17,604 bases of DNA from a virus. Position numbers and translations under genes: made by a program. Shown here piece after piece: positions 1,447-16,557 of the stretch. Positions within the stretch are counted from its first letter, which is position 1. Every line of letters starts with the position of its first letter. Under the pieces are notes generated by a model. It had not been told where the DNA came from and did no database searches. It worked only from the letters and a program-made list of their open reading frames with translations. The DNA is taken from the IMG/VR virus record IMGVR_UViG_3300021400_000219, positions 121,970 through 139,573 of that record; one strand, written 5' to 3'.

Positions 1447-1592
1447 TTCTAAATCACCTCAACAATAATTTTTAATTCTTTAGTGTTTCGCTAGACGAAA
1501 CCTGTGGGGAACCTACGCATGGCCCTCTCTCCCTTCCTAGTCTATTCCGCAGGGGAGGTTTGGCGCCTTGCCCTCTCCCTTGGAACAATTAT

Positions 1593-1621
1593 AGTATAAC
1601 AGATAGGGCCGTATTTGTCAA
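1593..1621 (-). promoter_or_regulatory. sigma-A/70-type promoter, class A upstream module
   Basis: Minus TTGACA-N17-TATACT (TGT-extended); drives the ~300-nt transcript carrying the two mini-ORFs. Confidence 0.7.
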
Positions 1622-1713
1622 GGGGTTTTTGAAAAAAATTTAATGGAATTTTCTGGAAGTTGCGCCCGGGCGCGTTAGCCTAAGCTAACTCCCAGATAAA
1701 GGGAAAGCGGGGA

Positions 1714-2082
1714 TTACTCCCCGCTAACCGCCTTGAAATAGGTGGTGCGCTTCTCCTGCACCTTCTCCACAGTGCCAGCCTCAACCATCTGCCGAAGCAG
1801 AGCCGAAGCCCACTGGGAGGACTTGCCAAAGTTGGCACCCACATCCTTAGCCTGCCGCAGGAGGTTGGGGTCCTCCATCAGGAAATCCAGAATCTGGACC
1901 TTGAACCCCTCGTTCTCCAGCTGCTTCTTGGAAGGCTTGCGCTCACCCTTGGAGCTGTTGCGCTTCTGGTAAGAAGCCTTGCAAGCCTCCAGCTTCTCCA
2001 CAACCTCAGCATCGAAGTTGTTGCGGGACAGGAAGTCAATGGCGGAAGTCAGAGCGTCCACATAAGTCATCTTGGTAGCCAT
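1714..2082 (-). CDS. winged-helix-like small DNA-binding protein, paralog family 1 (subtype a)
   Basis: 122-aa ORF; ATG 2082 after AAAGGA SD. The C-terminus ...SSQWASALLRQMVEAGTVEKVQEKRTTYFKA looks like a recognition helix plus wing. Paralogous to 7440..7805, 4399..4761 and 9645..10019. Confidence 0.9.
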   Translation of the reverse strand: MATKMTYVDALTSAIDFLSRNNFDAEVVEKLEACKASYQKRNSSKGERKPSKKQLENEGFKVQILDFLMEDPNLLRQAKDVGANFGKSSQWASALLRQMVEAGTVEKVQEKRTTYFKAVSGE

Positions 2083-2132
2083 AGTATCAATCCTTTCTGG
2101 TTTGGGAGGTTTTCCTTCCTCTTTATGTATTT

Positions 2133-2161
2133 ATTGTATCACAGGTTTGAGGGTTTGTCAA
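2133..2161 (-). promoter_or_regulatory. sigma-A/70-type promoter (gene-proximal of a tandem pair)
   Basis: Minus TTGACA-N17-TACAAT (TGA-extended), with an A/T-rich UP-like tract upstream; serves 1714..2082. Confidence 0.75.
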
Positions 2162-2232
2162 GACCTTTTTTTGATTTTTTTGAAAATCTTTTTTCGGCCT
2201 TGGCCGTTGTCCCTCTCCCTTGGAACAATTAT

Positions 2233-2261
2233 AGTATAGCAGAAGGGGGGCCAAAAGTCAA
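2233..2261 (-). promoter_or_regulatory. sigma-A/70-type promoter, class B (GGTTACA repeats upstream)
   Basis: Minus TTGACT-N17-TATACT (TGC-extended); GGTTACAATTTGGTTACA at 2282-2299; distal partner of 2133-2161. Confidence 0.65.
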
Positions 2262-2321
2262 TTACAAAGTAGAAACAAAATGGTTACAATTTGGTTACAG
2301 GCGCCCGGGCGGAAAACTGCA

Positions 2322-2597
2322 TCAAGCGTGATGCAATTTTCCATCAACGACATAAGTTATACTTTCAAGGCCATCATACTCATCAATTTCCCAGTCGGTA
2401 CAGTTGTCAGGAAGGTCTACCATCACAAGGTTTGCGGTGTAGCCAGAAATATCTTTAGAACCATACTCGTGCATTAACATGATTAAACGCTCATCAGTGC
2501 GTTCAATCATGGCGTAAGGATGTTTCAGACCCAGCTTGTTACAAGCCATAGGAGAAAGAGAAAAACCACCATAGCATTTATTCAACACAATCTTCAT
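2322..2597 (-). CDS. hypothetical protein (91 aa)
   Basis: ORF track; ATG 2597 after AAGGAGG SD. The stop lies inside the hairpin TTGCATCA-N4-TGATGCAA. Confidence 0.85.
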   Translation of the reverse strand: MKIVLNKCYGGFSLSPMACNKLGLKHPYAMIERTDERLIMLMHEYGSKDISGYTANLVMVDLPDNCTDWEIDEYDGLESITYVVDGKLHHA

Positions 2598-2628
2598 TTG
2601 AAGTTACCTCCTTCGTTTCTGTAATTAT

Positions 2629-2657
2629 AATATACCACAGTATTCGCTAATAGTCAA
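2629..2657 (-). promoter_or_regulatory. sigma-A/70-type promoter, class B
   Basis: Minus TTGACT-N17-TATATT (TGG-extended); GTTACATTTTGGTTACA at 2658-2674. Confidence 0.65.
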
Positions 2658-2698
2658 GTTACATTTTGGTTACAGAAATGCCCGGGCGCTTCACTGCG

Positions 2699-2839
2699 CT
2701 AAAGCAGTGAAGAACGCCATTTTATTTTCCAGCAATACCAAAACTTAAAAATATTATACGGTTTTACCCCCATCAAATACGCCCCCTTTTTATGCACTTT
2801 ATACGCATCAAAAAACTTTCTTTCAATAATCTTTCTCAT
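2699..2839 (-). CDS. small basic, aromatic-rich protein (46 aa)
   Basis: Below the ORF-track cut-off. ATG 2839 lies 4 nt after the exonuclease stop, with AAGGGGG SD. Sequence MRKIIERKFFDAYKVHKKGAYLMGVKPYNIFKFWYCWKIKWRSSLL. The stop is in the loop of CTTCACTGC/GCAGTGAAG. Confidence 0.55.
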   Translation of the reverse strand: MRKIIERKFFDAYKVHKKGAYLMGVKPYNIFKFWYCWKIKWRSSLL

Positions 2840-2843
2840 TTAT

Positions 2844-3536
2844 TTATTCCCCCTTTAGAGCCTTTCTATAAACCTGAACTTTACGCCAGCAATTATAAGA
2901 AATAGAATCATCAAAATCAAGGCCAGATTTAATAATTTTCATGTAAATCTGTCTTTCAATGTCCACATCTTCAAGCCCTGTATGTTCTTCAATAAAATCA
3001 GTATTATTAGTGATAAATCTATACGCAATTTCTGCGCTAGTTTGTACGTTGCCACAATCAGAAATAAATCCGTTGCGTTCTGCATAGTTAATAAAAGCGG
3101 GGGTTTTCAAAATAGAACTGCAAGCCATGTTCCAGATGCAAAAATATTCAGTATTATAAGGGAAAAACCAGCGGATAAAAGAACAAGTGATAAAACGTGC
3201 ATCATTATTTGTGGCCCGCTTGTCAAAGCCCATATTATACGCCCCTACTTTATAGGCGTTATACTCTCTCATGTCCGCCCACAAAATACGCCGAATATTT
3301 AACAGCTTTTTCAGGGTTCTTTTACCCTCTTTAATCTGCTCCCAATACTGCGGAATCTTTTCCGCAAAATAAGCGTTCTGCATCATTTCCTTATCAAGGA
3401 AAATTTCAGCCACAACGAAAGAACGCTCGACCAAAATCTCACCAGTGGTATTATCCACAATCTGGTAGCCCACATCATAGGGCAAAGGCTGTTCCACACA
3501 GTTGGCAGTCTCAGTATCAATAATCAGAATATTCAT
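2844..3536 (-). CDS. DEDDh-type 3'-5' exonuclease (DnaQ-like fold)
   Basis: True start is MNILIIDTET at 3536; the upstream part of the 295-aa track ORF reads through the promoter. Motifs: IIDTET (ExoI), YNMGFD (ExoII), HTGLEDVD (ExoIII with His). Confidence 0.85.
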   Translation of the reverse strand: MNILIIDTETANCVEQPLPYDVGYQIVDNTTGEILVERSFVVAEIFLDKEMMQNAYFAEKIPQYWEQIKEGKRTLKKLLNIRRILWADMREYNAYKVGAYNMGFDKRATNNDARFITCSFIRWFFPYNTEYFCIWNMACSSILKTPAFINYAERNGFISDCGNVQTSAEIAYRFITNNTDFIEEHTGLEDVDIERQIYMKIIKSGLDFDDSISYNCWRKVQVYRKALKGE

Positions 3537-3591
3537 AGTATCAATTCCCTTCTTTTTTTTCTTGGGGTTTCTGACCCCCTCAACAATTATT

Positions 3592-3619
3592 ATTATAGCA
3601 GGTTTTTTGAAAATTGCAA
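3592..3619 (-). promoter_or_regulatory. sigma-A/70-type promoter, class C (TTGCACAA operator upstream)
   Basis: Minus TTGCAA-N16-TATAAT (TGC-extended); inverted repeat TTGCACAAAA (3629-3638) / TTTTGTGCAA (3651-3660). Confidence 0.6.
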
Positions 3620-3699
3620 GATGGTAAATTGCACAAAATGCGCAGGTAGTTTTTGTGCAAAATGCCGGGGCGCCCGGGCGGGAGTTAGCCGCAGCTAAC

Positions 3700-3834
3700 T
3701 CACCATGTATGCGTGTCAATGTATTCCACAAAATACCATGCAGGCATACAAAGATAATAAATACCTAACAGAAACAGGGCCGCAATAAGCTTAAAGGGAA
3801 ACAGAATATAATTTTTAATACGCTTTTTATTCAT
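3700..3834 (-). CDS. small single-TM protein (44 aa)
   Basis: Below the track cut-off. AAAGGA SD. Sequence MNKKRIKNYILFPFKLIAALFLLGIYYLCMPAWYFVEYIDTHTW. The stop abuts the GAGTTAGC/GCTAACTC hairpin. Confidence 0.6.
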   Translation of the reverse strand: MNKKRIKNYILFPFKLIAALFLLGIYYLCMPAWYFVEYIDTHTW

Positions 3835-3878
3835 TTTTATTTATCCTTTCTTTTGGAATAATAGGGGGCTTGCGCCCC

Positions 3879-4229
3879 CTACTTTCTTTTTTGCGTCAAT
3901 GTCAACTCAAACTTCTTTCCGTCAACCTCAAAAGCAATAACTCTTTCCTTGTTAGTGATTTCAAGGTTATCAACGGAGTTAGTCAGAAAGTTAGCAATTT
4001 CCGCAATCAAATGGCCTTTGGTTTCGTTGGGTTTTCTTTCCCTTTTGGTGAATTTGTAAGCCGTAGGCTTTCTGTCTGCCTGCCTTGCTTTCTTTTCCAC
4101 CTTTTTCTGTTCAGCCGTCAAGGGGAACGGGTCTGCGCCCTTGTCGATTTCTTTATCAGTGGCAATGATTTCCATCGCTTCCTGTTCAGAAATATCAAGG
4201 ACTTTCATCAGTCTTTCCTTTTGGTTCAT
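3879..4229 (-). CDS. hypothetical basic protein, paralog family 2
   Basis: True start MNQKERL at 4229 (AGGAAGGGG SD). 116 aa, paralogous to 9262..9615 over its full length (shared ...QADRK..AYKF.K.ERK.N..K...). Confidence 0.85.
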   Translation of the reverse strand: MNQKERLMKVLDISEQEAMEIIATDKEIDKGADPFPLTAEQKKVEKKARQADRKPTAYKFTKRERKPNETKGHLIAEIANFLTNSVDNLEITNKERVIAFEVDGKKFELTLTQKRK

Positions 4230-4253
4230 GGTATCACCCCTTCCTTGATTATT

Positions 4254-4282
4254 ATTATAAGGGATAGAGGGCCAAAAGTCAA
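4254..4282 (-). promoter_or_regulatory. sigma-A/70-type promoter, class C
   Basis: Minus TTGACT-N17-TATAAT; TCGTCAATTTGCAC motif at 4294-4307. Confidence 0.65.
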
Positions 4283-4361
4283 GATAAATTTGTTCGTCAA
4301 TTTGCACAAAAGTGGTTAGTATAGGCTAACCGCACCCGGGAGAGTTAGTGTGCGCTAACTT

Positions 4362-4392
4362 CCAGAAAAAGGAAAAGGCCCCACATGGGGCC
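4362..4392 (-). terminator. intrinsic terminator
   Basis: Minus GGCCCCA-TG-TGGGGCC (4377-4392) followed by TTTTCCTTTTTC; just 3' of CDS 4399..4761. Confidence 0.65.
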
Positions 4393-4398
4393 TAATCC

Positions 4399-4761
4399 TC
4401 AAATGTCCATGGCCTTGAAGTAGGTGACACGCTTGTCAACATACTTGTCAACCATGCCGTTGAGATACAGGGTGCGGAGCAGACCGCTCACCCGCTGGCT
4501 GGTAGCATCTGCCAGCTCAGGCACCCCAGCGCAAATCTCAGAGATGCGGAAACCCTTGTCCGAATCATCCCGCAGGAAATCCAGAATCTTGGAGCGAATG
4601 GCATCGTTTTCCACCTGCTTGGCGGAAGGCTTGCGCTCAGCCGTGGACTTCTTGGCAAAGCCCTCGGCAATCTTTTCCAGCTTCTCCCGCAGGGCAGTTT
4701 CCTCAGCAGGGACGAAAGTCAGGGCCATCTCAATAGCAGTCTTATTAGTCAGCTTAGTCAT
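4399..4761 (-). CDS. winged-helix-like small DNA-binding protein, paralog family 1 (subtype b)
   Basis: True start MTKLTNK at 4761; the track ORF extends through the promoter. The C-terminus GFRISEICAGVPELADATSQRVSGLLRTLYLNGMVDKYVDKRVTYFKAM is nearly identical to that of 9645..10019. Confidence 0.9.
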   Translation of the reverse strand: MTKLTNKTAIEMALTFVPAEETALREKLEKIAEGFAKKSTAERKPSAKQVENDAIRSKILDFLRDDSDKGFRISEICAGVPELADATSQRVSGLLRTLYLNGMVDKYVDKRVTYFKAMDI

Positions 4762-4830
4762 AGTATCACTCACTTTCTCCGTTTTAACGAGTTCGGCTCT
4801 CAATCTTTTGTTTTCCTTTACTGTACTTGT

Positions 4831-4859
4831 ATTATAGCACAGCTTGGGGAGTTTGTCAA
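4831..4859 (-). promoter_or_regulatory. sigma-A/70-type promoter (gene-proximal of a tandem pair)
   Basis: Minus TTGACA-N17-TATAAT (TGC-extended); its 5'UTR is conserved with that of 7440..7805. Confidence 0.75.
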
Positions 4860-4960
4860 GAGGTTTTGAAAACTTTTTTCGGATTATTTTACACCGACCA
4901 TTAACTCTCAAGGAGTGGCTCTCTTTCGCTCGCCGTCCCCAACCCCTCTTGACATTTATT

Positions 4961-4988
4961 ATTATAGCAGATTTCTCCCAAATTGCAA
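4961..4988 (-). promoter_or_regulatory. sigma-A/70-type promoter, class C (distal tandem)
   Basis: Minus TTGCAA-N16-TATAAT (TGC-extended); homologous to 3592-3619, including the upstream ATTGCAAGATGG..GCACAAA. Confidence 0.6.
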
Positions 4989-5037
4989 GATGGGATTTTG
5001 CACAAATTAGATTAACTTCTTTTGGTTAAAATGTCAA

Positions 5038-5066
5038 TAGACAAGCGCATGTTTTTGTGATAAAAT
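5038..5066 (+). promoter_or_regulatory. plus-strand promoter facing a GC-rich island
   Basis: TAGACA-N17-TAAAAT (TGA-extended) followed by TAGTGGGGGG. Its -35 overlaps a minus-sense TTGACA (GTCAATAGACA, 5033-5043). Confidence 0.5.
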
Positions 5067-5072
5067 TAGTGG

Positions 5073-5150
5073 GGGGTCTGCGCGCGGCGGCACCGGCCGT
5101 TATCGGGACGCGCGTGTGTGTGCGTGTGTCGCTTTAAAGAGCTAAAGCGC
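5073..5150 (+). ncRNA. candidate small RNA / GC-rich island, copy C
   Basis: Starts downstream of promoter 5038-5066. Sequence GGGGGTCTGCGCGCGGCGGCACCGGCCGTTATCGGG...GCTTTAAAGAGCTAAAGCG, homologous to 14045-14135 and 16951-17045. Contains a 22-nt alternating purine-pyrimidine run at 5108-5129. The 3' end is unknown. Confidence 0.3.
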
Positions 5151-5170
5151 CCGGGAGAGTTAGCGAGGGC

Positions 5171-5458
5171 TTACCCCTCGCTCGTATCTACTCCCAGAAT
5201 AATCAACAGACTACAGATAGTGCCCCACGCATGGACGCCCATGTCCTCAGGGATTGCATCCCACACATCAGGATACAGACGGCGCACACCAGAGAGAAGC
5301 ATCCCGCCCCAGTTACCACCGCAAGCGGTACACAAGTCAAGGAAATCTTTAAAACTCATTTTAGTTTTCTGCGCCATGCACGCATAGACAACAACTTCAT
5401 CGCCCCACTCGTTCCGCACAGTATCAAGGGCTTCCATGAAATCAGAATGAAGAATCAT
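5171..5458 (-). CDS. hypothetical protein (95 aa)
   Basis: ATG 5458 overlaps the upstream stop as ATGA. Begins MILHSDFMEALDTVRNEW...; the stop is in the loop of AGCGAGGG/CCCTCGCT. Confidence 0.85.
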   Translation of the reverse strand: MILHSDFMEALDTVRNEWGDEVVVYACMAQKTKMSFKDFLDLCTACGGNWGGMLLSGVRRLYPDVWDAIPEDMGVHAWGTICSLLIILGVDTSEG

Positions 5459-5601
5459 CTTGCACACTCCTTTCTCAAATCAGCTTTCAGATGGTGGCGA
5501 GCCATCCGCCGACAACTTCTCTTAATGTTTCTGTTGGAATAGGAATCAGTCCAGTAACGCCCACGGCGCAGACCCACACTCTTAGCCTTGAAGTTATTCA
5601 T
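5455..5601 (-). CDS. small Arg/Lys-rich protein (48 aa)
   Basis: True start at 5601 after GAGGGAGGAAC SD. Sequence MNNFKAKSVGLRRGRYWTDSYSNRNIKRSCRRMARHHLKADLRKECAR. Below the track cut-off once the promoter read-through is trimmed. Confidence 0.7.
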   Translation of the reverse strand: MNNFKAKSVGLRRGRYWTDSYSNRNIKRSCRRMARHHLKADLRKECAR

Positions 5602-5631
5602 TGCTTTGTTCCTCCCTCTTGGATTGTCTAT

Positions 5632-5660
5632 AGTATAGCAGATAATCAGGGATTTGTCAA
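5632..5660 (-). promoter_or_regulatory. sigma-A/70-type promoter, class A
   Basis: Minus TTGACA-N17-TATACT (TGC-extended). Confidence 0.75.
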
Positions 5661-5716
5661 TACTTTTGGACAAAAAAGTTTAAGGAAATATTTTCCAGGG
5701 CCCGGGCACTTGGAAA

Positions 5717-5995
5717 TTACTCCCAAGTCCCTTCCAGATAAAGCTGGATAATTCTAGTAGCCATTTTCTTGGGCTCCAGCATAGTCACGTCATCCTCATC
5801 CCAAGGGAACTGATAGGATTCAACCATTCCCTTGTCACTCCCATAGGTACCAGCATGACAAGCAACATCACCTTCATGCCAAGGGAAACGCAACTGCATC
5901 CCTTCAAAAATAGGATTAACAGTGAAAGGAACGCTTGCAAAAGTCAGGCAGGCAATCACAGCATTAATAGCATCAGTATACTTGTTAGTGAACAT
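5717..5995 (-). CDS. hypothetical protein (92 aa)
   Basis: True start MFTNKYT at 5995 after AAAGGAGGAAC SD; the stop is in a GUAA-type hairpin loop (5708-5728). Confidence 0.85.
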   Translation of the reverse strand: MFTNKYTDAINAVIACLTFASVPFTVNPIFEGMQLRFPWHEGDVACHAGTYGSDKGMVESYQFPWDEDDVTMLEPKKMATRIIQLYLEGTWE

Positions 5996-6025
5996 TTTTT
6001 GTTCCTCCTTTGTTTTACTGTAGTC

Positions 6026-6054
6026 ATTGTACCACATGGTAAAGCATTTGTCAA
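6026..6054 (-). promoter_or_regulatory. sigma-A/70-type promoter, class A
   Basis: Minus TTGACA-N17-TACAAT (TGG-extended). Confidence 0.75.
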
Positions 6055-6115
6055 TAGGTTTTTCAAAAAAATTTAATGGAATTTTTTTCCAGTTACCCGG
6101 GCGTGTGCTGGAAAT

Positions 6116-6295
6116 TTATTCCAGCACTTCCACCTCTTCCCAATCCCAAAACTCTTCATTAGGATTCCAGAATGTGGCAAAATCATCACATTCATCAATG
6201 GCAGAAACTCCCAGTTTACAGCGTCCATCCTTTTCCCAGTAGGGACAATCCCAGCCGTTGACAGTGCAGTAAATAACCATTCTTTTTTCTTTCAT
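6116..6295 (-). CDS. small acidic Cys-containing protein (59 aa)
   Basis: Missed by the track (59 aa). ATG 6295 overlaps the stop of 6292..6504 as ATGA. Sequence MKEKRMVIYCTVNGWDCPYWEKDGRCKLGVSAIDECDDFATFWNPNEEFWDWEEVEVLE. The stop is in the GTGCTGGAA/TTCCAGCAC hairpin. Confidence 0.7.
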   Translation of the reverse strand: MKEKRMVIYCTVNGWDCPYWEKDGRCKLGVSAIDECDDFATFWNPNEEFWDWEEVEVLE

Positions 6296-6504
6296 TGTAT
6301 CACTTTCCTTTCTTCAAGTTCACAATCTTCACGAGTCATTAGATAATCAAACTCTTTCAAGCACTCATAGTTTCCCGCAAGCGCATACTCTACAATATCT
6401 CTTGCAGTAGTCCAAGCAATGTAGTTTTCAGCATCGCAATGGTCAATCCTTGCATCAAAGATGTGGCGCAGGGTATCCACAATTTCAGACGAGATAATAT
6501 ACAC
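6292..6504 (-). CDS. hypothetical protein (70 aa, GTG start)
   Basis: ORF track; GTG 6504 lies 6 nt after GGAAGGTGA, and an in-frame TGA lies just upstream. Confidence 0.75.
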   Translation of the reverse strand: MYIISSEIVDTLRHIFDARIDHCDAENYIAWTTARDIVEYALAGNYECLKEFDYLMTREDCELEERKVIQ

Positions 6505-6553
6505 AATGTATCACCTTCCTATTGGATTTGTTTCCTTCCCTTGGAACAACTAT

Positions 6554-6582
6554 AGTATAGCACAGCAGAGGGTCTTTGTCAA
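6554..6582 (-). promoter_or_regulatory. sigma-A/70-type promoter, class A
   Basis: Minus TTGACA-N17-TATACT (TGC-extended). Confidence 0.75.
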
Positions 6583-6647
6583 TACTAAATTGAAAAAAAT
6601 TTGATGGAATTTTTGGAAATGTTTTCCAGTGCCCGGGTGATGGTGAC

Positions 6648-6827
6648 TTAGTCACCATCCCTTTCTTCAAATTCACATACAGGACAAATAAAATCTCTAA
6701 AGTCTTCCTCTTCCCAATCAGATTCATAGATAGGCTCGCCGCACTCGGGACAATTATAAAATCGTTCATCCCAATTTACGAAACCGCCGAATACATTTTC
6801 AACAATCTTTGCATTCAGTTCCCACAT
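6648..6827 (-). CDS. small acidic zinc-ribbon protein (59 aa)
   Basis: True start MWELNAK at 6827 after AAGGAGG. CPEC...CPVC gives two CxxC pairs. The stop is in the loop of GATGGTGAC/GTCACCATC. Confidence 0.8.
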   Translation of the reverse strand: MWELNAKIVENVFGGFVNWDERFYNCPECGEPIYESDWEEEDFRDFICPVCEFEERDGD

Positions 6828-6840
6828 GGAATTTACCTCC

Positions 6841-6945
6841 TTACCAACCAAAAATCCGAGAGAGTATAACAAGTATTGCATCAAATACAGCTCCAATACC
6901 AATGGCACCCATAATCATCCAAAATAAAACATCCATGTCTTTCAT
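6841..6945 (-). CDS. 34-aa hydrophobic micro-protein (single TM)
   Basis: Below the track cut-off; GAGGGAGG SD. Sequence MKDMDVLFWMIMGAIGIGAVFDAILVILSRIFGW; first gene after promoter 6975-7002. Confidence 0.55.
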   Translation of the reverse strand: MKDMDVLFWMIMGAIGIGAVFDAILVILSRIFGW

Positions 6946-6974
6946 GTTATTACCTCCCTCATTTCTGTAATTAT

Positions 6975-7002
6975 AGTATACCACAAATTATCCAAAAGTC
7001 AA
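6975..7002 (-). promoter_or_regulatory. sigma-A/70-type promoter, class B
   Basis: Minus TTGACT-N16-TATACT (TGG-extended); GTTACAATTTGGTTACA at 7003-7019. Confidence 0.65.
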
Positions 7003-7041
7003 GTTACAATTTGGTTACAAACACCCGGGCGCGAAGGTGAC

Positions 7042-7281
7042 TTAGTCACCCTCATTCGTCTTCATTGGAAACAGGTCGTCCAGATTGGTAACACCTGGAA
7101 TAAATTCAGTAATAAAAGAAAAAGGTCTTGCTTCTGCCAATTCTACGTTGTCAATGTCCCACACATCATCAAAGGCTTCTTCGCACGGCGGGCGTAATCC
7201 CTTCCAAAATTTGGTTTCTGCTTCCTCTGCGGTTTCCGCTTCAATCATGCAATAACCAGAAAAATCAATGTACCATTTCAT
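7042..7281 (-). CDS. small strongly acidic protein (79 aa)
   Basis: ORF track; AAAGGAG SD. 19 D/E versus 6 K/R by count. The stop is in the GGTGAC-TTA-GTCACC hairpin. Confidence 0.85.
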   Translation of the reverse strand: MKWYIDFSGYCMIEAETAEEAETKFWKGLRPPCEEAFDDVWDIDNVELAEARPFSFITEFIPGVTNLDDLFPMKTNEGD

Positions 7282-7321
7282 TAGATGATACTCCTTTCAT
7301 TTCTTTTCTTAGGTTGAGTAT

Positions 7322-7350
7322 AGTATAACACTTCACAGGGCATTTGTCAA
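7322..7350 (-). promoter_or_regulatory. sigma-A/70-type promoter, class A
   Basis: Minus TTGACA-N17-TATACT (TGT-extended). Confidence 0.75.
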
Positions 7351-7439
7351 TAGAAAATTGAAAAAAATTTAATGGAATTTATTCCCATTTACCCGGGCGC
7401 GTTAGCTGCTGCTAACTCTGGAAGAAAAAGGAAGGGGGA

Positions 7440-7805
7440 TTACTCCCCCTTCACCTGGAAGCGGCTGACCCGCTTCTCCACAACCTTCTCCACGGTTCCA
7501 GCTTCTACCAGCTGGCGCAGAAGGGCGGAAGCCTGCTGGCTGGAAGAGAGTTCCAGTTCGGCGGCTACTTCCTTCGCCTGCATAGGCTCGTGGTCAGTCA
7601 GCAGTTCAACGATGCGGGCCTTGATACCCTCGTTTTCAATCTGCTTCTTGGTGGGCTTGCGCTCGCCCTTGGACTTGGAAGCGTTCCGCTTCTCATAGCT
7701 GGCCTTGCAAGCAACCAGCTTTTCCATGGCTTCCTCGTTGAAGTCAGCGGGCAGGGAAGCAATAGCCATTTCCAGAGCCTTCACATAAGTCATCTTGTTA
7801 GTCAT
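7440..7805 (-). CDS. winged-helix-like small DNA-binding protein, paralog family 1 (subtype a)
   Basis: True start MTNKMTYVKAL at 7805. Collinear with 1714..2082 (EKLxACKASYxKRN..KGERKP.KKQ.ENEG..., ...ASALLRQ.VEAGTVEKV.EKR). The stop is in the GUAA loop of AAGGGGGA/TCCCCCTT. Confidence 0.9.
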   Translation of the reverse strand: MTNKMTYVKALEMAIASLPADFNEEAMEKLVACKASYEKRNASKSKGERKPTKKQIENEGIKARIVELLTDHEPMQAKEVAAELELSSSQQASALLRQLVEAGTVEKVVEKRVSRFQVKGE

Positions 7806-7879
7806 AGTATGCACTACCTTTCTCTGTTTTAACGAGTTCAGCTCTCAATCTGTTTTGTTCTTTCCCTTACTGTGGCTTT

Positions 7880-7908
7880 ATTATACCACAGGTTCAGGGG
7901 TTTGTCAA
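7880..7908 (-). promoter_or_regulatory. sigma-A/70-type promoter (gene-proximal tandem)
   Basis: Minus TTGACA-N17-TATAAT (TGG-extended). Confidence 0.75.
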
Positions 7909-8018
7909 GAGTTTTTTTGAATTTCTCTTGATTTTTTTGGAGCCATTTTTTAGGTGGGCTACTTCCAACACCCGACTGTTGGCGGTTTTTTAGGTGCGCT
8001 CCCTCACCCGACATCATT

Positions 8019-8047
8019 ATATTACCACAGGTTGCTCCATTTGTCAA
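8019..8047 (-). promoter_or_regulatory. sigma-A/70-type promoter, class A (distal tandem)
   Basis: Minus TTGACA-N17-TAATAT (TGG-extended). Followed by two ~37-nt tandem units GTCGGGTG..CACCTAAAAAA (about 7925-8010). Confidence 0.6.
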
Positions 8048-8117
8048 GGGTTTTTTCAAAAGTTTTTTCTGGAATTTCTACCAAGATTTTCCAGCGACCC
8101 GGGCGAGTTAGCGGGGG

Positions 8118-8495
8118 TTAACCCCGCTTGTACTCTTTAGTGCCCATAGAGTAAGGAATGTTGTACATCTCACAAGCTTCAATGGCGTACCCGATTGCCA
8201 GATTTGCCATTTCCTGGGCTTGCTCATACTTTCTGTTAGGGGTAATCTTGTAAAGAAAATGGTCATTCTGAACCTGTTCAAACAAGTAGGACATTTTCAG
8301 TCGTGCATGAGCTTCGACGGCAAGCCGCTCAGATTTGGTAGCTTTTGGCATTTTAATCCATGCTAAACACTGAAAATGTTCATTCTGTCTGATGCTGGAA
8401 AGACGCTGTGCTGGGGTGTCTTTGCCAGTTTCACCCAGCTTGAAAACACCATTCTTACGGCAGAAATAATTAAAACCAGTATAAAAGCAAGCCAT
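8118..8495 (-). CDS. T5orf172 / GIY-YIG-superfamily-like domain protein (125 aa)
   Basis: ORF track. GVFKLGETGKDTPAQRLSSI plus ERLAVEAHARLK fits the KIG-T...R...L / E..LH pattern of T5orf172 (MUG113) domains as I remember it; not verified by search. Confidence 0.8.
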   Translation of the reverse strand: MACFYTGFNYFCRKNGVFKLGETGKDTPAQRLSSIRQNEHFQCLAWIKMPKATKSERLAVEAHARLKMSYLFEQVQNDHFLYKITPNRKYEQAQEMANLAIGYAIEACEMYNIPYSMGTKEYKRG

Positions 8496-8559
8496 TATTC
8501 ATTCTCCATTCATTTTTTATTGATTGGGGTTTACCTTCGTTCCCCTCAACCTTGATTAT

Positions 8560-8588
8560 AGTATAGCAGATAGGAATGGATTTGTCAA
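8560..8588 (-). promoter_or_regulatory. sigma-A/70-type promoter, class A
   Basis: Minus TTGACA-N17-TATACT (TGC-extended). Confidence 0.75.
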
Positions 8589-8649
8589 TACCTTTTTTCA
8601 AATTTTTTAATGGAATTTTTTTCCAGTTGCCCGGGCGCAGGAGTTAGCA

Positions 8650-8955
8650 TTAGCTAACTCCATTTTCTTCCAGACAAAATTCAAAACTCAAATCTTTTAC
8701 CACTTTTTGGGAAATGTATTCACGCACAAGGAAAAGCTCTAAATCTCTAGCCTGCTCCTCTACATAGCTACGGCGCAAATCGCGCACAGTGGAAAGATTT
8801 ACCATCGGGTATTCCATAGGATAACCACGCGCAACCACAATTACATTGTAAAGATTTTCCACGGGGTTCACCCTCATTCTCTTTTTCTTCTGGAATTTAT
8901 TGGTTTTATTGCGTTCAACTTTCGTTCTAAATTCTTTCATTTTTGCCTTGCTCAT
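8650..8955 (-). CDS. hypothetical protein (101 aa)
   Basis: Start MSKAKMKEF at 8955 overlaps the upstream stop as ATGA. The stop lies in the loop of the GGAGTTAGC-N4-GCTAACTCC hairpin (8640-8661). Confidence 0.8.
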   Translation of the reverse strand: MSKAKMKEFRTKVERNKTNKFQKKKRMRVNPVENLYNVIVVARGYPMEYPMVNLSTVRDLRRSYVEEQARDLELFLVREYISQKVVKDLSFEFCLEENGVS

Positions 8956-9119
8956 GAGAACACACCCCCAAAATGAAGCACCCAAAATAAACAACAAACC
9001 CCACTCATTGCCATTTCAATATACAAAACAGGGCGGTAATTATCCTCGGCAGTATCCAGCTCTTTCCAGCTCCAAAGGAAAATCACCATTAGCACAATCG
9101 CAATAATCAAATCTTTCAT
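8952..9119 (-). CDS. small membrane protein (55 aa, two hydrophobic segments)
   Basis: True start MKDLIIAIVLMVIFLW at 9119 after AGGAGG SD. Confidence 0.7.
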   Translation of the reverse strand: MKDLIIAIVLMVIFLWSWKELDTAEDNYRPVLYIEMAMSGVCCLFWVLHFGGVFS

Positions 9120-9151
9120 TTTAATTACCTCCTGGTTCATTTCTTGAGTAT

Positions 9152-9180
9152 AGTATAACAGATGGGAGAGGATTTGTCAA
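9152..9180 (-). promoter_or_regulatory. sigma-A/70-type promoter, class A
   Basis: Minus TTGACA-N17-TATACT (TGT-extended). Confidence 0.75.
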
Positions 9181-9261
9181 TACCTTTTTTAGAAAAATTT
9201 ACTGGAAATGTTTTCCAAGTGCCCGGGCGGCGCTTTAGCGCACTGAAGCGCTAAAGCATCC

Positions 9262-9615
9262 TCACTTTCTGGGGGCTGATAATACTACTTTGTATTTAGT
9301 ATTTTCAAACGTAAAAATAAACTCTCTTTCTACGTTGGTTATTTCTAACGCTTCCCCGCCATTTTCATTTATTGCGGTTGTGAGAATATCCATTATTGCG
9401 CGTTTTGCGTTGTTTGCTTTACGTTCCTTTTTGGGGAATTTATAAGCGGATACTTTGCGGTCAGCTTGACGCATTTTTTTTGCTACTTTCTGTTGTTCAG
9501 AATTTAACTCAAAAAGTTTTGCCCCGTGGTCTATTGCATCATCATCAGCTAATACTTGTTTAGCTTCTTCCTCTGTCAAATCTAATACCTGCATTAAATG
9601 TTCGATTCTCTCCAT
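9262..9615 (-). CDS. hypothetical basic protein, paralog family 2
   Basis: 117-aa ORF; ATG 9615. No promoter between it and 9645..10019, so it is operonic. Confidence 0.85.
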   Translation of the reverse strand: MERIEHLMQVLDLTEEEAKQVLADDDAIDHGAKLFELNSEQQKVAKKMRQADRKVSAYKFPKKERKANNAKRAIMDILTTAINENGGEALEITNVEREFIFTFENTKYKVVLSAPRK

Positions 9616-9644
9616 TTTTATTTACCCCCTTTTTGGGGAGGGGG

Positions 9645-10019
9645 TTAAACCCCCTCACCCATGGCCTTGAAATAAGTAATGCGCTTATCTACGTACTTAT
9701 CTACCATTCCGTTCAGGTAGAGCGTCCGCAGAAGTCCGCTCACCCTCTGGGAAGTCGCATCGTTCAGAGCGGGAACACCTGCGCAGATTTCAGAGATACG
9801 GAAACCTCTGTCCACATCTTCCCGCAGGAAATCCAGAATTTCCGCACGGACGGCGTCGTTCTCTGCCTGCTTTGCGCTAGGCTTGCGGGGAGCGGTGTTC
9901 TTCTTAATGGCCTGTTCCTTCATCTTCTCCAGCTTTTCCACAACATCCGTCATGTCAGCGGGAACGTAGGACAGAGCAACTTCCAGAGCCTTAACAGTAG
10001 TCATCTTATTGGTAGCCAT
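9645..10019 (-). CDS. winged-helix-like small DNA-binding protein, paralog family 1 (subtype b)
   Basis: True start MATNKMTTVKAL at 10019. The stop is in the palindrome GGGGGTT-T-AACCCCC. Confidence 0.9.
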   Translation of the reverse strand: MATNKMTTVKALEVALSYVPADMTDVVEKLEKMKEQAIKKNTAPRKPSAKQAENDAVRAEILDFLREDVDRGFRISEICAGVPALNDATSQRVSGLLRTLYLNGMVDKYVDKRITYFKAMGEGV

Positions 10020-10073
10020 AGTATCACTCACTTTCTCTGTTTGTGGGGTTTATCAGCTCCCCTTGATGTATTA

Positions 10074-10102
10074 AGTATAGCACAGGTTGAAGGGTTTGTC
10101 AA
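10074..10102 (-). promoter_or_regulatory. sigma-A/70-type promoter (gene-proximal tandem)
   Basis: Minus TTGACA-N17-TATACT (TGC-extended). Confidence 0.75.
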
Positions 10103-10224
10103 GAGTTTTTTGCAGTTTTTCTGATTTTTTTTGTGAGAACCACGAATGGAAAAAACTCTCAAAAAATTATCGTTTGAAACTCTGTCCCTAGGGCTTTGGG
10201 GCCCCTTGCCCTTTGGACAAGTAT

Positions 10225-10253
10225 AATATAACACATTGGGGCGCGTTTGTCAA
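10225..10253 (-). promoter_or_regulatory. sigma-A/70-type promoter, class C (distal tandem)
   Basis: Minus TTGACA-N17-TATATT (TGT-extended); TTGCACAA and GTGCATTTTGACGG motifs at 10286-10335. Confidence 0.6.
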
Positions 10254-10414
10254 TACTGATTTGAAAATTTGGGGGCATTCTCTGTTTTGCACAATTTTGA
10301 TGCAAAAATTGCGTCATTTTTGTGCATTTTGACGGCGCGCCCGGGTGAACTACCAATTTCAGGAAAAGCTGGGGTCAAGAGAGAACAAGGAAATTCATTG
10401 AAAAATTTGGTAAC

Positions 10415-10891: not shown

Positions 10892-11341
10892 TTAAAGACC
10901 TCCCAGAACTTCAAGAATATTATTTACATCATAGGCATTTCCGCCTGCATTATTCCATTCAATTCTATTTCTTTCTTCATCATCAAACAGGATGCCGATT
11001 TCATTTACTACGGTACTTTTGGGGGTGCCATAGGAAACAATTTTCACATCATCAAAATGGACGCTTGCCAGATGTTTTTTTAACCACATCTTTTTTGCTT
11101 CTGTTACAACCTTGTTGTAATCGGGGTTATCTTCCTTAGAGAGCCAAGAGACAACACCAATTTTCCATCCAAGGGCCTGTAACTTGTTCAGCTTGTGGGC
11201 CAGCGCAGAAAGCCGAATCAGGGGTTTTGCGATTTCATAGGGAAGGGGATTTCTCTCAATTAGATAGGAGAGCCAATTTTCCACGCCATACAGATCGGCA
11301 ATAGTCCCATCCATGTCGAAATAAATAGCCTTGTTCATCAT
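10892..11341 (-). CDS. HAD-superfamily hydrolase, 5'(3')-deoxyribonucleotidase (NT5C)-like, paralog 1
   Basis: True start MMNKAIYFDMDGT at 11341 (or 11338). DMDGT is HAD motif I (DxDxT). Roughly 60% identical by eye to 15023..15487. Confidence 0.85.
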   Translation of the reverse strand: MMNKAIYFDMDGTIADLYGVENWLSYLIERNPLPYEIAKPLIRLSALAHKLNKLQALGWKIGVVSWLSKEDNPDYNKVVTEAKKMWLKKHLASVHFDDVKIVSYGTPKSTVVNEIGILFDDEERNRIEWNNAGGNAYDVNNILEVLGGL

Positions 11342-12046: not shown

Positions 12047-12490
12047 TTACCCGATATGGGCGGCCAGCCAAGCCAGCATCTTTTTGCTTTCTTTAGCGCA
12101 CCGGATTTTCATCCCGCCGCCGTTCTTCTGGCTTTCCCGCTCGGTCTTGCAGAACTCGGTGCAGAAGGCGGTGAACTCGTCCCGGTTCATCATATAGACC
12201 TGATAATCGGCGGTAACGTAGGCCCAGAGGTTGCTGTGGGTGCGCTCCATATAGAGGGCCCAGATTTCATCATAAGTTTCCCGGCCTTCGCACAGGGTGG
12301 CGCTCATAAGGGTGAAGGCAGAAGCCTTGACGGAGATGAGCATTTCACCAAGCTCGATATCAGAGCCTTTGTCATATGCACCGCTATCATGGGTGGTGCG
12401 GTCGATGCCCATATAGTGGCACAGATCGTGCTCACGGGCAATGCCCTTATTAGTAGCGGGGGAAACGTGGTCAATCTTGAAGGTCTTCAT
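12047..12490 (-). CDS. hypothetical protein (147 aa), noticeably GC-richer than its neighbours
   Basis: True start MKTFKIDHV at 12490 after AAGGAAAGGGAG. GSDIELGEMLISVKAS weakly recalls a PD-(D/E)xK nuclease core; that part is low confidence. Confidence 0.85.
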   Translation of the reverse strand: MKTFKIDHVSPATNKGIAREHDLCHYMGIDRTTHDSGAYDKGSDIELGEMLISVKASAFTLMSATLCEGRETYDEIWALYMERTHSNLWAYVTADYQVYMMNRDEFTAFCTEFCKTERESQKNGGGMKIRCAKESKKMLAWLAAHIG

Positions 12491-12521
12491 CTGAAGCACT
12501 CCCTTTCCTTAGGATGGTTAT

Positions 12522-12550
12522 AGTATAGCACCATTCCCCGGGATAGTCAA
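12522..12550 (-). promoter_or_regulatory. sigma-A/70-type promoter, class C
   Basis: Minus TTGACT-N17-TATACT (TGC-extended); CCCCGGG lies in the spacer. Confidence 0.7.
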
Positions 12551-12614
12551 TACAAAATCGCAAATTTCCCCTTGTGCAAATTATACAAATGTTGGAGCGG
12601 ATTTTTGGGGGCTG

Positions 12615-12631
12615 TTGTGCAAGTTGCACAA
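12615..12631. promoter_or_regulatory. 17-bp perfect palindrome, operator candidate
   Basis: TTGTGCAA-G-TTGCACAA, read directly. Confidence 0.6.
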
Positions 12632-12669
12632 TTAGTGTAACCTGGGTCACATTAAAAGTAACAAAAGAG

Positions 12670-12697
12670 TTACAATCTCTAACAATCAATTACAATC
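12670..12697. repeat. three 10-bp-phased TWACAATC repeats (iteron-like)
   Basis: TTACAATC 12670-12677, TAACAATC 12680-12687, TTACAATC 12690-12697. The core is shared with the class B GGTTACAAT motif. Confidence 0.7.
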
Positions 12698-12727
12698 TTT
12701 TTTTTACTTTCAAAACACTTTTTTTAA

Positions 12728-12910
12728 GTTAGCAGTTAGCAAAGGGTAATGCTAGTTAGCACAAGCTAATTGTTGTTAGTTCGAACTAACTCCGGTTAGC
12801 AGGGACTAACTGGAGTTAGCCTAGGCTAACTTTAGCACACTAAAGCTGTAGCGATTTAGCGAACTAAAGTGCGCCGGACCTGGCAATTTGAACAATTAGC
12901 GGCTGCTAAC
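12728..12910. repeat. tandem array of 8 TTAG(C)-loop-(G)CTAA mini-palindromes
   Basis: Hairpins or palindromes at 12737-12754, 12755-12769, 12775-12790 (GTTAGTTCGAACTAAC), 12795-12810, 12814-12831 (AGTTAGCCTAGGCTAACT), 12830-12845, 12855-12868 and 12896-12909. Confidence 0.85.
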
Positions 12911-12913
12911 TTT

Positions 12914-13167
12914 GTGCATTTTGACGAGGTTTCGGGATTCGTCAAGTTGCACAAAAATGTAACCAAATTGTAACCAAAATTTGTGCAATTTGACGGTGGC
13001 GCGAACTCGGCTGCCAACGACTGCGCTGGGCCACAGTGCACTCGTTGGCGGCCGGTTCGTCATTTTGCACAAATGCGTGCGTGCGAGGGGCCTTAACTTT
13101 ATGCATTATGACGAAAAAAAATTTTTGTGCAAAATGACGAATCAAATCCTGATTCGTCAAAATGCAC
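12914..13167. repeat. array of GTGCA-N3-TGACG motifs in nested inverted pairs
   Basis: Forward copies at 12914-12927, 12983-12996, 13101-13114 and 13127-13140. Reverse copies at 12939-12952, 13057-13070 and 13154-13167. Further copies at 4294-4307 and 10322-10335. Confidence 0.8.
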
Positions 13168-13192
13168 AAAAAAAGAGGCATTGCCCGGCCTC
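13166..13192 (-). terminator. intrinsic terminator
   Basis: Minus GAGGC-CGGGCAAT-GCCTC followed by TTTTTTT. Confidence 0.6.
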
Positions 13193-13463
13193 ATCGGGGG
13201 GAAGCTTGACGCCCTTCCCTGGCGGTGGTGTCCACTTTCGGGGACACGCCCGGCTCCGTTTGCTAGCCGCAGGAGCGTCGCGGCGCTGGGGTCGTTCCCT
13301 TGCCCCTTGGGGAACTTGATGGCCTCCATTTCTATCCCGCGGCCTTGGGGGCGGCCTAGCTACTTTGTGGGGAGTATCGCCCACGTTTCGCCGACGCGGC
13401 TGGGATTTTGGTGTCATCGCGCATCCCGTGCGCTCAAGAGGGACAAGTCAACCTCTTTTCTAT
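13166..13463 (-). ncRNA. candidate ~300-nt GC-rich structured non-coding RNA
   Basis: Runs from promoter 13470-13498 to the intrinsic terminator GAGGC-N8-GCCTC plus T7 (13168-13192). No SD-preceded ORF. Many local hairpins, e.g. GUGUCC-CCGAAAGU-GGACAC and GGGAAG..CUUCCC. Confidence 0.4.
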
Positions 13464-13469
13464 GGTCTT

Positions 13470-13498
13470 ATTATAGCACCCGCAAGGGGTTTTGTCAA
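13470..13498 (-). promoter_or_regulatory. sigma-A/70-type promoter driving the non-coding transcript
   Basis: Minus TTGACA-N17-TATAAT (TGC-extended); an A13-containing UP-like tract upstream (plus-strand T run 13509-13521). Confidence 0.7.
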
Positions 13499-13540
13499 GG
13501 GTTTTTTCTTTTTTTTTTTTTGTTCCCGGAGGGCCGGGGC

Positions 13541-13699
13541 TTAGTAGCCCCAGCCGATGGAGGTTACCCTCCATCCCTCCTCCCGCAGTGCGGGATAAAG
13601 GGCGGCGAAACTCGCCAACCCGTGTTCCCACACACGGGACTCACAGGCCCACAGGCCAGTGAAGAGGTTCCGATGGAACCGGATGTATTCAATTTTCAT
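13541..13699 (-). CDS. hypothetical protein (52 aa)
   Basis: True start MKIEYIRFHRNLF at 13699 after AAAGGAGG. The stop is in the GGGGCT-N4-AGCCCC hairpin. Confidence 0.6.
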   Translation of the reverse strand: MKIEYIRFHRNLFTGLWACESRVWEHGLASFAALYPALREEGWRVTSIGWGY

Positions 13700-13729
13700 G
13701 GAAGTGACCTCCTTTGTTTTACTGTAATC

Positions 13730-13758
13730 ATTATAGCAGACCCGCCCGGGTTTGTCAA
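13730..13758 (-). promoter_or_regulatory. sigma-A/70-type promoter (gene-proximal tandem)
   Basis: Minus TTGACA-N17-TATAAT (TGC-extended); CCCGGG lies within the spacer. Confidence 0.7.
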
Positions 13759-13924
13759 CCCTTTTTTTCATTTTTTTTATTTTTTTTTGGTTCCCCATAC
13801 CCCTCCGGGGAACCACTGGCCGGCTATTTTTTACCTCCCGCCCTAGGGGGTGGCCCTTGGTACTTTGTGGGGTATCTTGCCCACGTTTCCCAGAGGGAGG
13901 GCCCGGAGGGTTTCCCCTCCTGAC
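13759..13924 (-). ncRNA. candidate short GC-rich RNA between tandem promoters
   Basis: Starts after promoter 13931-13959. Contains GGAGGG-GAAA-CCCTCC and GGTTCCCC..GGGGAACC hairpins and a ~50-nt block homologous to 13341-13392. Confidence 0.3.
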
Positions 13925-13930
13925 ATGATT

Positions 13931-13959
13931 ATAATACCACAGGCCCGGCTAAAAGTCTA
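13931..13959 (-). promoter_or_regulatory. sigma-A/70-type promoter (distal tandem; back-to-back with a plus-sense TTGACA box)
   Basis: Minus TAGACT-N17-TATTAT (TGG-extended). Its -35 overlaps a plus-sense TTGACA in GTCTATTGACA (13955-13965). Confidence 0.55.
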
Positions 13960-14007
13960 TTGACAAATCTCACAAATCGGGATGTTCTATTTTGTGCATT
14001 TTTACTC

Positions 14008-14037: not shown

Positions 14038-14044
14038 ATTTCTG

Positions 14045-16479: not shown

Positions 16480-16509
16480 TTTGTTTTCCTCCTTTGTTTT
16501 ACTGTAATC

Positions 16510-16537: not shown

Positions 16538-16557
16538 GAGGTTTTTTCAAATTTCCC

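Follow-up and report, generated by a model that had tools for sequence, protein, structure and literature searches.

A stretch of 17,604 nucleotides of viral DNA from the IMG/VR record IMGVR_UViG_3300021400_000219 (termed the window, to whose positions all coordinates refer) carries four paralogous genes, designated a1, a2, b1 and b2, of a small-protein family referred to as family 1, together with two genes of a second family, family 2, each lying downstream of a b-type family-1 gene so as to form a two-gene module. It is proposed, with a confidence a little short of even, that the family-1 proteins may be phage-specific, abundant early DNA-binding regulators which act on repeated motifs and tune early transcription. 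The proposal builds on the fold, conservation, selection regime and expression-related features of the family and on the enrichment of the motifs, from which DNA binding, targets and a regulatory role are extrapolated.

A winged-helix family and its partner protein

All credible genes of the window are on the minus strand. The six relevant open reading frames had been listed in a first-pass annotation of the window, and each was recovered at the same position, on the minus strand:

1714..2082, minus strand: a1, family 1, 122 residues; helical hairpin, RKPS linker and winged helix; solo gene
7440..7805, minus strand: a2, family 1, 121 residues; solo gene
4399..4761, minus strand: b1, family 1, 120 residues; upstream member of module 1
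3879..4229, minus strand: family 2, Q type (tail ...LTQKRK), 116 residues; module 1
9645..10019, minus strand: b2, family 1, 124 residues; upstream member of module 2
9262..9615, minus strand: family 2, S type (tail ...LSAPRK), 117 residues; module 2

Amino acid identities within family 1 are 62% for a1 and a2, 72% for b1 and b2, and 36–43% between the a and b types, while the two family-2 proteins of the window are 46% identical. A profile built from the four family-1 copies retrieved 794 homologues with best E-values of 1e-54, a similarity far beyond chance, and the family-2 profile retrieved more than 2160 proteins (1362 clusters at 50% identity), all of them free-standing and 100–135 residues in length. 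The homologues of both families were sourced almost exclusively from metagenomes and none bears a meaningful name; the window itself aligns at 98% identity with a section of a 67-kb ENA contig, the P0002 protein of which is 100% identical to a1.

An AlphaFold2 (AF2) model of b2, based on a 72-sequence alignment, had a predicted local distance difference test score (pLDDT) of 87, with values above 90 over the winged-helix domain. The model comprises two N-terminal helices (residues 8–18 and 24–42), a lower-confidence linker containing RKPSxKQxEN, and a winged helix made up of helices at 49–68, 75–81 and 90–102, a strand at 73, and a wing at 106–119 (strands 106–111 and 114–119). When the model was compared with the PDB by Foldseek, almost all of the top 50 matches were winged-helix domains (probability 1.0, E ~1e-2), headed by MecI/BlaI, ArsR/SmtB, MarR/MepR, Fur and PadR. 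The DNA-binding fold anticipated in the first-pass annotation was thus obtained by both methods, and the modelled structure places family 1 in the winged-helix topology class (H1, short strand, H2, H3, beta-hairpin wing). Each ~120-residue protein of the family accordingly begins with a helical hairpin, continues through an almost invariant RKP[ST]xxQxEN linker and ends in a winged helix. At the level of sequence, the best Pfam winged-helix matches were those of a2 to HTH_20 (5e-5; 23.6 bits against a cut-off of 27), MarR_2 and IclR, all under the gathering score, and a2 also matched PHROG 2440, a transcriptional regulator (5e-6). Across family 1, matches to HTH_20, MarR_2, IclR, TrmB and ArsR in Pfam and NCBIfam were exclusively sub-threshold, and some database homologues carry precomputed HTH_24, TrmB or MarR_2 matches.

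Alignment of 140 family-1 members established the recognition helix as the second most conserved segment, behind the linker, with a top-residue frequency of 0.58 as against 0.38 for H2. Both the recognition helix and the wing are identical in b1 and b2; between a1 (SSQWASALLRQM) and a2 (SSQQASALLRQL), 3 of the 12 helix residues differ, including a W/Q exchange at a variable third position which could face DNA.

Family 2 combines an acidic N-terminus with a very basic central segment, has a pI of 10.4–10.8 compared with the mildly basic 8.6–9.0 of family 1, and like family 1 carries an RKP[ST] motif. Homology between the two families was considered and rejected, since profile–profile comparison aligned the RKP[ST] stretch only, with a probability of 3.5%. 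Searches with family 2 gave no match in Pfam or among PDB sequences, nothing above E 0.07 in PHROGs, and weak sub-threshold matches only in NCBIfam and PADLOC; no known fold was recognised and no Pfam or NCBIfam family could be assigned, making family 2 a candidate new domain family with a candidate new fold.

Nei–Gojobori counts of the proportions of synonymous (pS) and non-synonymous (pN) differences gave, for b1 and b2 overall, a pS of 0.68, a pN of 0.205 and a dN/dS ratio (omega) of ~0.13. Over the last ~45 codons, where 90–93% of the amino acids are identical, pS was 0.71–0.86 (saturated) and omega, where calculable, 0.05; the a1–a2 omega was 0.32, and the family-2 pair returned a pS of 0.80 (saturated) and a pN of 0.36. 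The first-pass annotation had described the b-type C-termini as almost identical in protein, their synonymous sites as drifted, and the copies as old duplicates under purifying selection rather than a recent repeat. The peptide that it quoted is correct, the saturated pS confirmed the drift, and the omega values bore out the selection. Recent gene conversion between b1 and b2 was rejected on the basis of a pS of 0.74 in their winged-helix halves, compared with 0.22 for the N-terminal halves of the window and a close relative, L002. Selection for extra synonymous divergence as a counter to recombination between copies was also considered: over the last 50 alignment columns of b1 and b2, a region picked post hoc, the same codon is used at 15 of 43 identical residues compared with the 23.1 ± 2.9 expected from family-1 codon usage, and this marginal signal (z = −2.8 in those columns, −1.3 overall) led to the rejection of that explanation. 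A second paralogous pair within the window (10892–11341 and 15023–15487) consists of NT5C-like 5'-deoxyribonucleotidases with 64% amino acid identity and a pS of 0.75 (saturated).

Promoters, leaders and operator-like motifs

Each family-1 gene is served by two tandem near-consensus promoters with A/T UP elements, an arrangement found again in the divergent loci L008 and L017. The four proximal promoters constitute a single subclass (family D1, TTGACAAACCCnnnAACCTGTG) of 80–100% identity, in which the UP element and the end of the leader are held in common and from which both CCCGGGC and operators are absent; those of b1 and a2 are the sole promoters with 12/12 consensus positions in 1500–10400, and no dyad was found in the shared proximal promoter beyond its conserved spacer. 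The relevant elements are as follows:

2133..2161, minus strand: a1 proximal promoter, TTGACAAACCCTCAAACCTGTGATACAAT
4831..4859, minus strand: b1 proximal promoter, 12/12 consensus, TG-extended −10
7880..7908, minus strand: a2 proximal promoter, 12/12 consensus, TG-extended −10
10074..10102, minus strand: b2 proximal promoter, of the proximal subclass
4781–4805 (b1) and 7826–7850 (a2), minus strand: 25-nt leader insert, GATTGAGAGCYGAACTCGTTAAAAC
2233–2261, minus strand: a1 distal promoter, with direct repeat TGTAACCAAATTGTAACC at 2282–2299 and CCCGGG at 2304–2309 (whole element 2233..2309)
8019–8047, minus strand: a2 distal promoter, with dyad CTGGAA-N14-TTCCAG at 8069–8094 and CCCGGG at 8098–8103 (whole element 8019..8103)
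4961–4988, minus strand: b1 distal promoter, with TTGTGCAA half-site at 4998–5005 (whole element 4961..5005)
10225–10253, minus strand: b2 distal promoter, with TTGTGCAA/TGACG-type cluster at 10287–10336 and CCCGGG at 10340–10345 (whole element 10225..10345)
4254–4282, minus strand: own promoter of the Q-type family-2 gene, with perfect composite motif TTGTGCAAATTGACGAA at 4293–4309 (whole element 4254..4359)
4315–4330 and 4344–4359, minus strand: GTTAGC-N5-CTAAC palindromes upstream of the Q-type family-2 gene, with CCCGGG at 4335–4340
1706–1725 and 7431–7452, minus strand: terminator-like hairpins after a1 and a2, with the stop codon in the loop
4376..4393, minus strand: terminator-like hairpin after b1
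9638..9656, minus strand: hairpin GAGGGGGTTTAACCCCCTC, spanning the b2 stop codon, with no T tail
12560..13180: gene-free hub, with 8 of the 15 window matches to TTGTGCAA-N2-TGACGAA, one GGTTACA repeat and at least eight tandem TTAGC-N4/5-GCTAA palindromes

A leader common to a2 and b1, as reported in the first-pass annotation, is real: the 25-nt block occurs twice where none is expected by chance, and sits inside the promoter, UP element and leader common to all four family-1 genes. Three of the four family-1 leaders fold more weakly than shuffled sequence (z +0.6 to +1.8; a1 −0.3), and the possibility that the common b1/a2 leader acts as a structured RNA was rejected, the z-scores being +1.6 and +1.8. 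The G+C content at third codon positions (GC3) is 0.60–0.76 in family 1 (0.76 in a1) compared with ~0.40 in neighbouring genes, and exceeds that of the other open reading frames in all 48 non-redundant loci by a mean of 0.20. Taken together, the tandem consensus promoters, unstructured leaders and GC3 bias lead us to infer that family 1 is selected for very high, immediate expression.

Near-consensus matches to TTGACA-N16–18-TATAAT numbered 35 on the gene strand of the window as against 2.25 in shuffled sequences, mostly with a TG-extended −10. On the minus strand, near-consensus sigma-70 promoters (TTGACA-17-TGnTATAAT; ~32 in all) stand in front of nearly all the small genes of the window; they fall into several subclasses with conserved spacers, and most related phage loci contain 20–55 each. 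The window is organised as a dense array of single-gene cassettes, the typical intergenic order on the minus strand being a stop-codon hairpin, a GTTAGC-N4/5-GCTAAC palindrome, CGCCCGGGCG, an operator-like element, an A/T UP-like element and a promoter. Hairpins of this kind, built around the stop codon (1706–1725, 7431–7452 and 6639–6659; e.g. GGGGAG-TAA-TCCCC), entail an overlap of the last codons with the terminator stem. The operator-like element is a CTGGAAA-N3-TTTCCAG dyad, a TGTAACC-N4-TGTAACC direct repeat or a site of the TTGTGCAA type, the full 17-nt form of which is TTGTGCAA-N2-TGACGAA. The operator-like motif families noticed at first pass withstood comparison with dinucleotide shuffles, the TGGAA/TTCCA dyad, TGTAACC repeat, TTGTGCAA(-N2-TGACGAA), GTTAGC palindrome and CCCGGGC all being strongly enriched, and the families occupy a fixed order upstream of the −35.

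Within the hub (12560–13180) the palindromes are spaced at ~20 bp and one pair of TTGTGCAA-N2-TGACGAA sites forms a ~47-nt palindrome. This stretch may serve the DNA-binding proteins of the region as a shared platform; an origin, a centromere and a regulatory sink are other things that it could represent. Directly downstream lies a 150-residue orphan gene (12047–12499) with a GC3 of 0.71, a codon bias like that of family 1 and no family match. Some ~1.6 kb (12500–14100) contain no sizeable open reading frame, and there two copies of a ~60-nt GC-rich element (GAAACGTGGGC..CCCCACAAAGTA..; 13335–13395 and 13830–13890, minus strand) follow consensus promoters; these are candidate small RNAs with no Rfam match, and neither tRNAs nor Rfam families were found anywhere in the window.

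The distal promoters of the family genes differ in the motif that accompanies them: that of a1 is associated with the TGTAACC repeat, that of a2 with the TGGAA/TTCCA dyad, and those of b1, b2 and the Q-type family-2 gene with TTGTGCAA. The associations of a1, a2, b2 and family 2 hold also in L002, a relative too close to be independent of the window. The hypothesis advanced at first pass, that each paralogue has its own operator, nevertheless found no support in that form. Since b1 and b2 are identical in recognition helix and wing they cannot have separate operators, and conservation of the recognition helix throughout the 140 members is the opposite of what paralogue-specific reading of DNA predicts; the four copies probably amount to no more than two or three ways of reading DNA (a1, a2 and b1 = b2). 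Across genomes, most distant relatives lack the TGTAACC and TGGAA motifs and retain the TTGTGCAA motif, and it is the full TTGTGCAA-N2-TGACGAA form that, like the family-1 recognition helix, is kept in many divergent relatives.

Evolution of the module and exchange at the linker

Family 1 was found in 46 IMG/VR loci, many of them on contigs of 90–200 kb, and its four-copy profile had only 2 matches when one genome from each of 185,579 prokaryotic species was searched. The viral-contig sources and near-absence from prokaryotic genomes suggest a clade of large, apparently non-integrating phages, which on this showing appear to be non-temperate; their promoters and ribosome-binding sites suggest that the hosts are Firmicutes. 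Among 50,697 GenBank phage records, nothing was matched by the window in megablast or by a2 or family 2 in tblastn. Both families are large, wholly unannotated and restricted to phages, and are markers of the early region in a widespread clade of big phages from gut and rumen, none of which has been cultured. The lineage also appears to be TAG-recoded outside its early genes: three genes of L001, a relative near-identical to the window (12338–12724, 13063–13686 and 16242–16901), contain 3–6 in-frame TAG codons yet code for sensible proteins (e.g. NlpC/P60) and lie just outside the early region, while TAG is the stop codon of 1 of the 28 window genes.

In a survey of 58 loci, nearly all had several copies of family 1, to a maximum of 7, and typically 2 of family 2, with every copy in a locus on a single strand; family 2 directly follows a family-1 gene in 65 of 97 cases. 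Family-2 proteins are of two types by their tails (S, ...LSxPRK; Q, ...LxQKRK), and in the window as in eight other lineages the S module is the upstream one of the two. The duplicated two-gene module claimed at first pass is thus conserved: at least nine divergent phage lineages have both copies, arranged alike. Within the window both modules are present, but only module 2 is a tightly spaced operon, b2 and family 2 being 29 bp apart and probably co-transcribed; in module 1 a terminator, operators and the family-2 gene's own promoter intervene between b1 and its partner.

The two members of the module have had contrasting histories. The Q-type family-2 protein of the window shares 60–69% identity with the orthologues at its position in L008 and L012, and comparisons between genomes gave a higher identity for the same type (52%) than across types (40%) in all 36 genome pairs, which implies that the duplication predates these lineages. 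The family-1 partners, by contrast, were 39% identical whether positions matched or not (same-position higher in 17 of 36 pairs), as against a mean of 64% for copies within one genome. Judged from these identities family 1 evolves in concert within genomes and family 2 does not, a contrast that provides a clean test of gene conversion versus recombination between phages versus selection for matched paralogues. The deep split between a and b types (36–43%) has been kept across lineages.

Comparison with L002 revealed a further mode of change. Promoters, N-terminal halves and family-2 genes are 90–100% identical in the two phages, whereas the winged-helix half is only 50–63% identical for b2 (9896–9618) and 65–83% for b1 (4626–4390), with flanks of 93–100% identity and an abrupt drop at the linker. 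The N-halves diverge at synonymous sites by 0.22 and the C-halves by 0.48–0.71, which points to import by recombination rather than to fast local evolution. Of the database pairs with N-halves at least 90% identical, 38% have C-halves below 70%, and the reverse exchange also occurs, P0042 and b1 having 39% identical N-halves and 100% identical C-halves. Swapped segments keep the recognition helix nearly unchanged (ATSQRVSGLLR versus ASSQRVSGLLR). Should family 1 control promoters, these genes would represent a natural example of transcription factors evolving by exchange of DNA-binding domains at a fixed joint.

Whole cassettes seem to be mobile too, apparently by recombination at the common promoter and terminator sequences: a promoter plus gene (2322–2597) cassette at 2311–2842 is absent from the 98%-identical L001, and other cassettes are differently placed in L002. 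The adjoining gene (2844–3536) codes for a 230-residue protein beginning MNILIIDTET, which resembles a DEDD-type exonuclease motif and matches only PHROG 20187, of unknown function, and no Pfam family. At the downstream end of the early region, positions 1–1000 form a compositional boundary that is AT-rich (30% GC) and has three copies of another A/T-rich promoter-like repeat, TTATTATACCAAAAATTTTTTTAAAAATCAA.

Interpretation and relation to known systems

On the proposed regulatory role, the family-1 proteins would be made in large amounts immediately after infection and would bind the repeated motifs upstream of the ~30 single-gene sigma-70 promoters and in the hub, thereby tuning or switching the early transcription programme, their own distal promoters included. 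Initial expression would come in a burst from the proximal promoters, with feedback through the distal promoters that bear operators, a scheme with which the lack of motif elements in the proximal promoters is consistent, as befits genes expressed first and then acting on others. Family 2, the conserved operon partner of the b-type copies, would probably serve as a cofactor or modulator. If family 1 does control the promoter array, it offers an entry point to the timing of early genes in such phages.

Several results weigh against such a role. None of the family-1 copies reached the curated Pfam or NCBIfam thresholds, and b1 and b2 had no winged-helix match at all. Most distant relatives that still carry family 1 lack the TGGAA and TGTAACC motifs; the TTGTGCAA motif adjoins family genes in 13 of 60 instances compared with 5.4% expected, an excess that mostly vanishes under an intergenic-only null; and the suggestive association of motifs with distal promoters, with a ~6% likelihood by our own estimate of arising by chance, concerns four promoters in one lineage. 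Simple repression is unlikely because most motifs lie upstream of the UP element rather than over the core promoter, and proteins other than family 1, from phage or host, could bind them, an example being the 207-residue helix-turn-helix (HTH) protein of L001. Co-divergence of the family-1 N-half with family-2 type was tried and discarded, cis exceeding trans in only 13 of 36 genome pairs; as the b-type N-half does not track its partner, there is no sign of specific pairing between the two families.

An unlikely but substantial alternative is that family 1 is an abundant architectural protein, analogous to phi29 p6 or SPO1 TF1, which coats DNA with little specificity so as to organise, protect or silence phage or host DNA, in which case the copies would chiefly raise dosage and family 2 would be a further basic component that binds DNA. 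Four copies with tandem consensus promoters, unstructured leaders and a GC3 bias in 48 of 48 loci are features that all point to maximal expression, the putative DNA-facing helix residues (S, Q, S, R) are conserved family-wide even in phages without the window's motifs, and the central segment of family 2 is very basic (pI 10.4–10.8). Family 1 is itself only mildly basic (pI 8.6–9.0), however, and pure dosage accounts neither for an a/b split maintained across lineages nor for strong purifying selection on distinct copies, while motifs so highly enriched and specific need some reader. The hub invites a different explanation, namely that the family-1 proteins assemble there on an origin or centromere and serve to initiate replication or in partition, with promoter-proximal motifs as secondary sites. 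Winged-helix proteins often bind iteron- or centromere-type arrays, which the hub resembles in its at least eight tandem palindromes at ~20-bp spacing and its eight composite TTGTGCAA-TGACGAA sites. We consider this quite improbable: no replication or partition ATPase or initiator is encoded nearby, cumulative GC skew is monotonic through the hub, and the same motifs at fixed positions relative to many promoters are a better fit to transcription control.

Somewhat less remote, albeit doubtful, is a loosely acr-aca-like role in which the proteins of both families act as effectors of host takeover or anti-defence, with the winged helix binding a host protein or host DNA and its replacement reflecting an arms race with host defences. 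The typical acr-aca operon places the anti-defence gene first and the HTH gene second, the reverse of the present order, and the module is not of that type, having the HTH gene first, no dyad in its proximal promoter beyond the conserved spacer and no defence-family match beyond winged-helix similarity. The exchange of the winged-helix half as a cassette between phages otherwise 95–100% identical, the 38% of N-half-matched pairs with divergent C-halves, and the location of the genes within an early region of small orphan genes resembling the SPO1 host-takeover module (PMC6873191) would all accord with effectors. Against this, the recognition helix is almost unchanged in swaps, so that the variable surfaces are not the DNA-reading ones; nothing identifies a host target; and the PADLOC matches are weak ones to the winged-helix-containing Csa3, SoFic and CARF at the winged-helix positions of family 1.

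The regulatory role may be extended, in a form we hold to be possible but rather unlikely, to a hitherto undescribed system by which a clade of large, uncultivated Firmicute phages with TAG recoding would control early transcription. Such a system would consist of abundant modular factors that reshuffle winged-helix and N-terminal effector halves at the RKP[ST] linker, a new-fold partner with the same motif, and a combinatorial operator grammar at ~30 promoters and the hub, the module copies being kept matched within a genome by selection rather than gene conversion. No description of a family-1/family-2 system was encountered in the literature and GenBank phage records searched. Winged-helix phage regulators as such are of an already known kind; the novelty lies in the two-domain family and its fixed joint for recombination, in the signature of its expression, in its conserved association with a partner of unknown fold, and in the way that concerted and divergent evolution stand side by side in a single module.

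Among known systems, a toxin–antitoxin pair does not correspond to the module, given the 2 matches among 185,579 prokaryotic species and a family 2 without recognisable fold or family. The small winged-helix repressors (MarR/MepR, ArsR/SmtB, BlaI/MecI and PadR) are the best structural and weak sequence matches to family 1, sharing its three-helix plus beta-hairpin wing topology and similar size. They differ in that the N-terminal hairpin and RKP[ST]xxQxEN linker have no counterpart in them and sequence matches are sub-threshold, and in that family 1 is phage-only and multi-copy, with domains that swap independently. The phi29 p4 and p6 proteins and SPO1 TF1 are small, abundant early DNA-binding proteins of Firmicute phages that switch transcription and occupy arrays of sites near strong sigma-A promoters, much as is proposed for family 1; their folds (unique in p4 and p6, HU-like in TF1) differ from that of family 1, and no sequence or structure similarity to them was detected.

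In the SPO1 host-takeover module, small genes that are mostly orphans are densely packed on one strand, with numerous strong promoters of the host type and strong ribosome-binding sites (PMC6873191). The window is like it in its dense small orphan genes on one strand and its strong promoters and ribosome-binding sites, although no homology to SPO1 genes was found, the GenBank phages searched having yielded no match. It is distinguished by a repeated operator grammar and paralogous regulators, neither of which has to our knowledge been described for SPO1. An evolutionary parallel is with the mosaic immunity regions of lambdoid phages, where, as here, a DNA-binding specificity module is replaced by recombination between near-identical genomes; in these apparently non-temperate phages, by contrast, only the winged-helix half is exchanged, at a conserved linker, while the operators and the recognition helix stay in place.

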